DNA from: Escherichia coli
GTDB lineage: Bacteria > Pseudomonadota > Gammaproteobacteria > Enterobacterales > Enterobacteriaceae
Length of the DNA stretch: 64,000 nucleotides
Strand: one strand, 5' to 3'
NCBI RefSeq assembly: GCF_003790525.1
Contig: NZ_CP033635.1
The position numbers were made by a program, and so were the translations under genes. A model generated the notes under the pieces. That model was not told the DNA's origin. It searched no databases and saw only the letters and a list, made by a program, of their open reading frames with translations. Positions 54,119-54,694 of this stretch are shown in pieces. The number at the start of each line of letters is the position of its first letter. Position 1 is the stretch's first letter.

Positions 54119-54265
54119 TTATTTATTATTAAAGAAAAAATTTACAAATCAAGTAAAAGAGACGCATAAATCAATTTTTTCTTGACAACCCCATCAATCA
54201 AGATCTAACATCACACCATCAATTTTAACTTGATTTGTTGTTAATTTTAAATTGATGGTGATTCA
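54119..54265. promoter_or_regulatory. OL/pL-like operator-promoter region downstream of cI
   Basis: AAATCAAGTAAAA at 54146-54158 (identical 13-mer to OR); -35-like CTTGAC at 54181; 12-bp inverted repeat CACCATCAATTT (54214-54225) / AAATTGATGGTG (54249-54260). Confidence 0.45.
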
Positions 54266-54694
54266 ATGAAAGATCTGACAACCACTGAGATATCGAACTT
54301 AAACCACTTCGAAAAAGAATCCTTTGCATTAAATATTGCAAATCTGGTAGGTGCTGCTCGTACTTTCCATTTAATTGATGGTGATCGCTCTAAAGAATTG
54401 GGGTTTGAAGTCATGGAGTTTGTTCATGAATACGCCCTGTCTGCTACTTATCCATTACATAATCACATAATCAACAAACAACCAAATAAAATCCGCACCC
54501 AACGCGAAGCCTGCGGCTTAACAACCACCGAACTCGCCAGGCTGCTCGATCTCGATGAAGAAATTATCATCCAGTGGGAAAGCGGAGAGTACGAACCAAC
54601 CATCAGCATGCTTATCCCTCTGGCTAATGTTCTTGGCTGTGATCCAATGTTGTTATTGACTGATGCTTATAAACAAAATCAGGAGGAAGCATAA
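54266..54694 (+). CDS. hypothetical protein with C-terminal XRE-type HTH
   Basis: 142-aa; C-terminal REACGLTTTELARLLDLDEEIIIQWESGEYEPTISMLIPLANVLGCDPMLLL is an XRE-family HTH. Confidence 0.6.
   Translation: MKDLTTTEISNLNHFEKESFALNIANLVGAARTFHLIDGDRSKELGFEVMEFVHEYALSATYPLHNHIINKQPNKIRTQREACGLTTTELARLLDLDEEIIIQWESGEYEPTISMLIPLANVLGCDPMLLLTDAYKQNQEEA

Follow-up and report, generated by a model that had tools for sequence, protein, structure and literature searches.

How can the first lytic-side gene of a lambdoid prophage be silenced when it lies downstream of a transcribed repressor gene and no terminator separates the two? The question is raised by positions 54119 to 54694 of a 64-kb stretch of Escherichia coli DNA (contig NZ_CP033635.1, assembly GCF_003790525.1; the whole analysed stretch is called the window below), where an intergenic region of 147 bp (54119–54265) lies between a cI repressor gene and the gene of a helix-turn-helix (HTH) protein of 142 amino acids (aa; 54266–54694, plus strand). 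Judged from its sequence, 54119–54265 is the leftward operator and promoter (OL/PL) control region of a lambdoid prophage of the P27/phi467 type, lambda's leftward direction being the plus strand of the window, and such an operator-rich region is by itself ordinary lambdoid biology. A possible extra layer on it, which is plausible, is an RNA fold-back acting as an alternative to a terminator. The combined reading, with CI operators in the DNA and an RNA fold-back that would insulate the HTH gene from cI read-through, is regarded here as evenly poised between right and wrong.

The OL/PL control region

The cI gene (53429–54118, plus strand) encodes a 229-aa repressor with an N-terminal HTH and a C-terminal S24 LexA-like domain (PHROGs phrog_4, E = 2.6e-51, and the CI-like phrog_6201, E = 1.1e-30), which is 100% identical to its phi467 counterpart, and the immunity region shows 97.6% identity across 2.3 kb with that of phi467, a Shiga toxin (Stx) 2e phage. 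Transcripts of cI read toward the OL/PL region, and the order of repressor gene and HTH gene on the same strand is kept in eight annotated phages, including phi467, PhiR49_2, phiP27, ASU11 and Stx1/Stx2 phages. An earlier interpretation made from the letters without database searches (the sequence-only reading) had proposed an OL-like region followed by the HTH gene as the first gene of the early-left operon; the former is borne out by its place directly after the LexA-like S24 CI gene in an order kept in related phages, and the latter by the gene order.

The predicted PL promoter (54182–54211, plus strand) consists of a −35 element TTGACA (54182–54187), an 18-nucleotide (nt) spacer and a −10 element TAACAT (54206–54211), agreeing with the consensus at 10 of 12 positions, and the CTTGAC earlier named as the −35 is indeed found at 54181–54186. 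From the −10 at 54206–54211 the consensus scan predicts a +1 near 54218, so that transcripts would start 4 nt inside the left arm of the inverted repeat described below. Six promoter-like sites were found in the region, no more than the 6.4 expected in shuffled sequence, so that the PL call rests on position and quality and not on statistics.

Operator-like sites were defined as the 17-bp pattern ATCAA-N7-TTGAT with at most two mismatches and were searched for in the whole 64-kb window. The rightward operator (OR) region (53303–53399), between cI and a cro-like gene (53022–53294, minus strand), holds sites at 53303–53319, 53334–53350 and 53383–53399. On the OL side, the site ATCAATTTTTTCTTGAC (54170–54186, one mismatch) overlaps the PL −35 and is kept in PhiR49_2 and Stx2 phages, its form in a Klebsiella phage being ATCAAGTTTAACTTGAC; the site ATCAATTTTAACTTGAT (54218–54234) lies at the predicted +1 and is the sole perfect match in the window, and the Klebsiella phage, which has a CI 77% identical to that of the window, carries an equivalent perfect site in the corresponding position. 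Both the −35 and the +1 sites are thus conserved in PhiR49_2, the Stx2 phages and this Klebsiella phage. The third site, GTTAATTTTAAATTGAT (54240–54256), lies in the 5' leader, and its reverse complement agrees with the OR site 53334–53350 at 15 of 17 positions; it is missing in the Klebsiella relative, and its palindrome is poorly conserved in Stx2 variants (A3 below). OR and OL therefore hold three operator-like sites each with a common core ATCAA(G/T)T, the OR and OL copies of the motif being 89% cross-complementary. A distal OL motif, AAATCAAGTAAAA (54146–54158, plus strand), which the sequence-only reading had listed, is present and has an exact copy at 53381–53393 in the cro-cI intergenic (OR) region, and the 22-bp spacing of the sites 54218 and 54240 is seen again at 54148/54170.

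Phage lambda carries OL1–OL3 at OL/PL and has a terminator after cI-rexAB. As in lambda, the leftward early promoter adjoins the repressor gene, three OL and three OR sites share a motif, and operators lie over the −35 and the +1; unlike lambda, this prophage is without rexAB, without N and without a terminator between cI and PL, its operators are of the ATCAA-N7-TTGAT form, and one site is placed in the leader by the ribosome site. We infer that CI, encoded directly upstream, would bind the three OL sites (−35, +1 and leader) and shut PL.

The inverted repeat and its predicted RNA fold

The inverted repeat has a left arm at 54214–54231 and a right arm at 54243–54260 (both read on the plus strand), with a perfect core of 12 bp (CACCATCAATTT at 54214–54225 and AAATTGATGGTG at 54249–54260), 18-nt arms that are 89% complementary and a gap of 11 nt. 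Its first four letters, CACC (54214–54217), lie upstream of the predicted +1, and the GGTG at the end of the right arm forms part of GGTGA (54257–54261, plus strand), read from the sequence as the Shine-Dalgarno (SD) of the HTH gene, whose ATG (54266) follows after 4 nt. The 12-bp repeat of the sequence-only reading is therefore present, but it does not span the −10 as had been stated, the left arm beginning 3 nt past this element, around the predicted +1, and the right arm stopping 5 nt before the ATG. The further claim that the repeat is distinct from the CI-type motif does not stand, because the arms carry the ATCAA(G/T)T core and lie on the operator-like sites 54218–54234 and 54240–54256: CACC followed by the left half of the 54218 site makes up the left arm, and the right half of the 54240 site followed by GGTG makes up the right one. 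CACC and GGTG themselves lie outside both 17-bp sites.

This composition bears on a reading in which the repeat is a DNA feature only, two pseudo-palindromic CI operators 22 bp apart that would serve cooperative CI binding, with a hairpin of no selected function. The position of the arms on two operator-like sites, the agreement of 54240–54256 with an OR site at 15 of 17 positions and the recurrence of the 22-bp spacing at 54148/54170 speak for it, as do the operator-type motifs in the arms of types B and C and the weak covariation described below; CACC and GGTG, outside the sites yet complementary in variants A1–A3, and the inner half of the third site, not conserved in A3, speak against it. 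Weighed together with the comparative evidence below, this reading is held to be somewhat unlikely but still a serious rival.

Folding of the RNA 54205–54270 gave −17.3 kcal/mol against −8.3 ± 2.4 in shuffles (z = −3.7; one shuffle in 200 equal). Among the 125 open reading frame (ORF) starts in the window, inverted repeats at the ribosome site scoring at least 10.5 were found at three and scoring at least 14 at none, and the observed repeat score was reached by 10 of 500 upstream shuffles. Partition-function folding gave GGUGA a probability of being unpaired of 0.20 for every RNA beginning at 54214 or further upstream and of 0.88–0.98 for those beginning from 54218 on, the change in accessibility falling between the 5' ends 54215 and 54218, and the energy needed to open the ribosome site fell from about 14–16 kcal/mol (upstream 5' ends) to 8.5 kcal/mol (PL start).

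A third exact copy of CACCATCAATT was observed at 54373–54383 (minus strand), 108 nt into the HTH gene, so that all three copies in the 64 kb span at most 170 bp. It is found only in the window's own subtype, is not conserved in A2/A3 relatives, and might serve as an additional half-site for a repressor or, in RNA, compete for pairing with the left arm.

Proposed insulation of the first PL gene from cI read-through

Transcripts from the cI promoters may run on into the HTH gene, since no plus-strand terminator was found in the window between the two genes. The read-through RNA would hold both arms and form the −17 kcal/mol hairpin, in which CACC pairs with the GGUG of the SD; the RNA started at PL would begin inside the left arm, without CACC, and its ribosome site would be open. 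Since only the read-through RNA would hide the SD, the first PL gene would be translated only upon the firing of PL, after loss of the repressor. The repeat, which joins the outer half of the +1 site and that of the leader site to CACC on the left and GGTG on the right, would then have a second role at the RNA level.

This logic resembles fold-back inhibition in IS10/Tn10, by which the translation of transposase from read-through transcripts is held down and which Davis, Simons and Kleckner reportedly described in 1985. As in IS10, the ribosome site is covered by the 3' arm; the gene's own promoter is here predicted to start transcription inside or after the 5' arm, and external transcripts alone are proposed to be silenced. 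Unlike IS10, the element lies in a prophage immunity region, the external transcription would come from the phage's own repressor gene, and the arms double as operator-like DNA.

A leader stem is also known for N, the first PL gene of lambda, where it limits translation and is cut by RNase III. The region described here would resemble it in having a leader hairpin that limits the first PL gene (predicted here), and differs from it in lacking a nut site and N and in that, by prediction, PL transcripts would carry only part of the hairpin. In another reading, the hairpin would act, like this stem, on the PL transcripts themselves, as a 5' stabiliser or as an RNase III or translational control element, and not as a read-through insulator. 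PL-start RNA does keep AU-rich helices, and an alternative G.U-rich helix can cover the SD; these residual helices are nevertheless weak in the window (−12 kcal/mol for the 89-nt RNA, with the SD 0.88–0.98 unpaired), the left arm would be missing from the PL transcripts of types B, C and E, and the absence of the repeat where terminators occur is left unexplained. Action on PL transcripts is therefore considered distinctly improbable.

Comparison across immunity types

The comparative set comprised 95 loci with 54 distinct cI-to-HTH intergenic sequences in nine variants, treated with a single script and fixed criteria, where A1 denotes the window, A3 the Stx2 variants, B P27 and C ASU11. All five terminator-less variants (A1, A3, B, C and E) have an inverted repeat with its 3' arm over the Shine-Dalgarno, with repeat scores of 10.5–15.5 in A1, B, C and E and of 6 plus a bulged extension in A3, and in all four terminator-bearing variants (A2, D, F and H) the repeat is weak or absent. 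The repeat sequences are unrelated between types, as in A (CACCATCAATT and following letters), B (TGATACCTTAGTTAC / GTAACTGAGGTATCA) and E (TACATTCACCTCAC / GTGAGGTGAATGTA), and that of type E bears no resemblance to its own operator motif TAGCA/TGCTA. The closest annotated comparison, P27, differs from the window in its CI, in operators of the AGTATCA type, in the N-terminal domain of its HTH protein and in its hairpin, a different one of 15 bp over the SD.

In types B and E the left arm is located either at the predicted −10/+1 or upstream of it, and the candidate −10 of type C lies in the loop between the arms, by which placement the left arm would be absent from the PL transcripts of all three. 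Modelled exposure of the SD in read-through and PL-start RNA was 0.10 versus 0.56 in A1, 0.10 versus 0.31 in A3, 0.01 versus 0.42 in B, and 0.00 versus 0.39 in E; in type D, where a terminator is present, it was 0.74 in read-through versus 0.67 in PL-start RNA. In all but one of the five repeat-bearing types, folding favours the sense strand over the antisense strand, the CACC/GGTG complementarity is kept in A1, A2 and A3, and the arm spacing ranges between types from 26 to 44 bp. Only two variable pairs exist within type B, both changed to G.U and none broken, and A1 and A2 show one double change, A-U to G-C. In the Klebsiella relative, cI is followed by a terminator-like hairpin and the third operator site is missing.

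These comparisons tell against the repeat as a mere pair of CI operators in several respects, namely that repeats occur only where cI is without a terminator, that the one-sided changes keep G.U pairing on the sense strand, that the Klebsiella phage with a 77%-identical CI does without the third site, that the type E repeat is unlike its operators, and that an arm spacing of 26 to 44 bp suits a hairpin loop better than a protein dimer.

Several points weigh against insulation by fold-back. The PL start comes from a consensus scan only, read-through from cI is deduced solely from the missing terminator, and CI bound at OL might itself stop such read-through. The arms of the window, B and C hold operator-type motifs, so that the hairpin could be a by-product of symmetric operators, and in RNA started at PL a weak alternative helix, rich in G.U pairs, can still close over the SD. 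Covariation is thin, with one double change, and three single sequences (A1/A2) break a pair; type A2 has a terminator and a weakened repeat together, and the split between terminator and hairpin is drawn from nine variants, of which A1–A3 are related. The start codon and promoter of type C are ambiguous, and with its alternative start (MRAKPT...) the repeat would lie upstream of the transcript and the SD would not be covered. Lastly, that DNA binding by the acidic HTH module of the downstream protein is unlikely is a judgement from composition only.

The HTH protein and its family

The 142-aa protein had been described as carrying a C-terminal XRE HTH, and this is confirmed by a Pfam HTH_3 match at residues 76–127 (E = 6.5e-11), together with phrog_4836 (E = 1.9e-58). 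It comprises a two-helix N-terminal domain (about residues 1–70), which is specific to the immunity type, and a near-invariant XRE HTH module (residues 77–133). The AlphaFold2 model, with a mean predicted local distance difference test score (pLDDT) of 70, shows long helices at 14–36 and 40–67 followed by the HTH. The fold of the module is canonical XRE with five helices, as in the XRE/Cro-C1 domains of P22 c2, 434 repressor, C.AhdI and SinR (Foldseek template modelling score, TM-score, to the target 0.8–0.86; root-mean-square deviation 0.9–1.9 Å), the nearest structures being P22 c2, C.AhdI and SinR; its best sequence match in the PDB is an archaeal MBF1-like domain. The PDB sequence and fold searches matched the XRE domain alone, with no match for the N-terminal domain or for the 63-aa ORFs described below. 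Unlike XRE repressors, the module has a net charge of −6, and its recognition helix (helix 3) starts with Asp-Glu-Glu at the positions where P22 c2 (S-N-V) and 434 repressor (Q-Q-S) contact bases; the whole protein has an isoelectric point of 4.69 and a net charge of −12, and the HTH domain of CI has a charge of +5.5.

The module sequence (RTQREACGLTTxELARLLDLDEEIIIQWESGEYEPTISMLIPLANVLGCDP) is near-invariant across seven immunity types, and its variable sites number 18, 6 and 45 (of 57) at codon positions 1, 2 and 3, a concentration at position 3 from which purifying selection on the module protein is deduced. The segment that encodes it (54494–54662, plus strand) is mosaic, with 89–98% nucleotide identity with otherwise unrelated immunity regions and a recombination boundary at its 5' edge, 54494. 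Across 94 loci of seven types, CI clusters and N-terminal-domain clusters are linked 1:1, and the C-terminal part, which has one HTH module or two, assorts freely with respect to immunity type. The second, atypical HTH module (…LTEADLARMIHTYSDPINDWECG…) was observed in many family members (L002, L006–L008, L029, L090 and others), independently of immunity type.

Members of the family, among them phiP27 L10 (which follows the repressor gene L11) and the phi467 gene labelled 'DicA', are always the first gene to follow cI; identity is 81% for the HTH module of P27 and 98.6% for the whole protein of phi467. The family numbers at least 156 clusters, the conserved module occurs in 345 of 5,426 complete E. 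coli genomes (about 6%), no relatives outside E. coli were found in a scan of one genome per species, and the family thus appears to be essentially confined to E. coli prophages. The label 'CII-like' (PHROG, from depositors' annotation, ASU11) and the label 'DicA' (phi467) are annotation transfers. An identity with lambda CII, suggested by the PHROG label 'CII-like regulator', was rejected, as the Pfam matches are to generic HTH families only and the gene lies on the PL side; PsrA/PsrB, prophage regulators of enterohaemorrhagic E. coli, were likewise rejected as a lead, being unrelated AraC-family proteins. No description of the HTH gene was found in literature searches, the phiP27 genome paper being outside their reach.

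In the reading offered earlier, the repeat would be the operator of the HTH protein, with autoregulation, a secondary immunity function or an antitoxin-like function. It would accord with the position of the repeat at the gene's own promoter and ribosome site, with the three copies of CACCATCAATT in 64 kb, all within 170 bp, with the joint variation of repeat and N-terminal domain by immunity type and with the type E repeat, which is not CI-like. The sole recognisable DNA-binding module is, however, invariant across types with unrelated repeats, so that it would not be a specific reader of the repeats; it has a net charge of −6 and a D-E-E recognition helix, the N-terminal domain is an acidic two-helix hairpin, in types D, F and H the gene occurs without the repeat, no toxin gene is adjacent, and antitoxin models stay below their cut-offs. 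A search for a DNA motif common to all immunity types, a candidate target of the module, gave none upstream of the gene and returned only a small downstream ORF that is conserved. The second DNA-binding specificity once proposed for the HTH protein is thus unlikely, given an invariant acidic module beside type-specific, unrelated repeats, and a role of the repeat as its operator is judged very improbable. By its sequence the protein is no analogue of N, and it probably does not bind the repeat; a role in contacting proteins appears more likely than operator binding, and the most likely target of the module is not the operators but some conserved partner, be it a protein or a nucleic-acid site that is itself conserved.

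The downstream genes of the PL operon

Downstream of the HTH gene lie a series of small plus-strand ORFs, then an Ant-like gene and then the integrase gene (59497–60810). The view that the operon lacks an N-like antiterminator is upheld: none of its ORFs matched the N family in PHROGs, and none has six or more arginines per 20 residues. Nor were strong plus-strand terminators that would require N found in the PL operon. The nut-like sites suggested as a check were looked for in the early transcripts, giving nine boxA-like sites against 6.7 expected and no convincing boxA. An exact boxA consensus, TGCTCTTTAA, the sole exact match, stands at 53438–53447 (minus strand), inside the 5' end of cI and upstream of OR and of the rightward promoter (PR); it would be outside the PR transcripts and is probably due to chance.

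Arginine-rich stretches were observed in two other early ORFs. The 97-aa ORF 52716–53009 (minus strand; phrog_852), the second gene of the rightward operon, has one (FRKENRARHEANTRLRLFVR) at residues 55–75, which is not N-terminal, unlike N, and this ORF has no significant Pfam match; the only other case is the 552-aa helicase gene (50206–51864, minus strand), with a segment near its C-terminus.

The antitoxin-like role proposed for the HTH protein is unsupported, since there is no adjacent toxin and the antitoxin models all remain far below cut-offs (couple_hipB 25.5 bits vs 71.65; MqsA 24.6 vs 61.8); NCBIfam and PADLOC gave only generic HTH matches for it, below cut-offs. Directly after the HTH gene come two translationally coupled acidic ORFs of 63 aa (54696–54887 and 54884–55075, plus strand; phrog_4587 and phrog_6882), for which no toxin, defence or NCBIfam match was obtained. 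Both show homology to the N-terminal domains found in HTH-family proteins of other immunity types (BLASTP E = 3e-9 with P0085 and 5e-9 with P0079), and between the window's own N-terminal domain and ORF 54696 there is no BLASTP alignment and a weak PHROG profile link. A ParE-like ORF lies 1.1 kb downstream, with five ORFs (63, 63, 32, 119 and 69 aa) between it and the HTH gene.

This 72-aa ORF (55800–56018, plus strand; Pfam ParE_like toxin domain PF24732, E = 2.2e-19) overlaps the end of the 69-aa ORF 55619–55828 (plus strand, phrog_340), and the two form a candidate toxin-antitoxin pair in the PL operon, which is also present in loci L093–L095. The 32-aa ORF 55158–55256 (plus strand, MKNRSAYKTALLMANAGYWSVAILFLRKAYGK) holds at its 3' end the 13-mer AAAGCATACGGGA (at 55239), whose region is the sole 11- to 13-mer outside the HTH module common to all nine intergenic variants; a 37-aa variant of this ORF, ending LFLRKAYGR, was observed in other types, and a terminator-like hairpin of the minus strand (55206–55183) lies inside it.

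The Klebsiella phage with the 77%-identical CI, ST16-OXA48phi5.3 (L096), has as its first PL gene a 116-aa ORF (2348–2698; phrog_27579/6882) without the HTH module. This 116-aa protein belongs to the same family as ORF 54884 and the N-terminal domains of one HTH type.

The arrangement recalls pairs of the SinR/SinI type, where a regulator stands beside small paralogues of its helical interaction domain. The likeness lies in the small stand-alone homologues of a two-helix domain that come after an HTH protein carrying a domain of this kind; the differences are that the helical domain of the prophage protein is at its N-terminus and that the small ORFs resemble the N-domains of other types and not that of their own neighbour. 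A further reading, which we hold to be unlikely, is that the first PL gene of this N-less phage group encodes an immunity-specific switch factor whose N-domain would recognise the cognate repressor, Cro or the leader, and whose HTH module would dock on a conserved host or phage partner; its product would be harmful to lysogeny and hence insulated by a terminator or by an independently evolved hairpin, and the free-standing N-domain paralogues, downstream in the window and at the first PL position in Klebsiella phages, would be its stand-alone versions.

Other features of the prophage

A Q-like antiterminator gene lies at 47957–48379 (minus strand). Downstream of Q, an IS-type transposase gene (45396–46376, plus strand; phrog_3598, E = 6e-174) adjoins tRNA-Arg(tct) and tRNA-Met genes (44720–44873), at the place that stxA/stxB occupy in phi467; no stxA-sized ORF is present, and the prophage thus appears to be without stx. 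An HNH homing-type endonuclease gene (51855–52475, minus strand; phrog_59, E = 1e-40) lies in the order between the 97-aa ORF and the helicase gene, a position taken in phi467 by a different ORF of 369 nt and in some relatives (L094) by a NUMOD4/HNH gene. The Rfam scan of the window returned two tRNAs and no other RNA family.

Implications for lambdoid and Stx prophages

If the fold-back reading is true, temperate phages would have, beside the terminator, a second means of silencing the first lytic-side gene downstream of a transcribed repressor gene, and the same solution would have been reached by unrelated sequences in several immunity types. The gene concerned belongs to an uncharacterised HTH family found in the place of N in Stx-converting prophages and related ones, with an N-terminal domain tied 1:1 to the immunity type, and the role of this family could matter for the understanding of Stx prophage induction.

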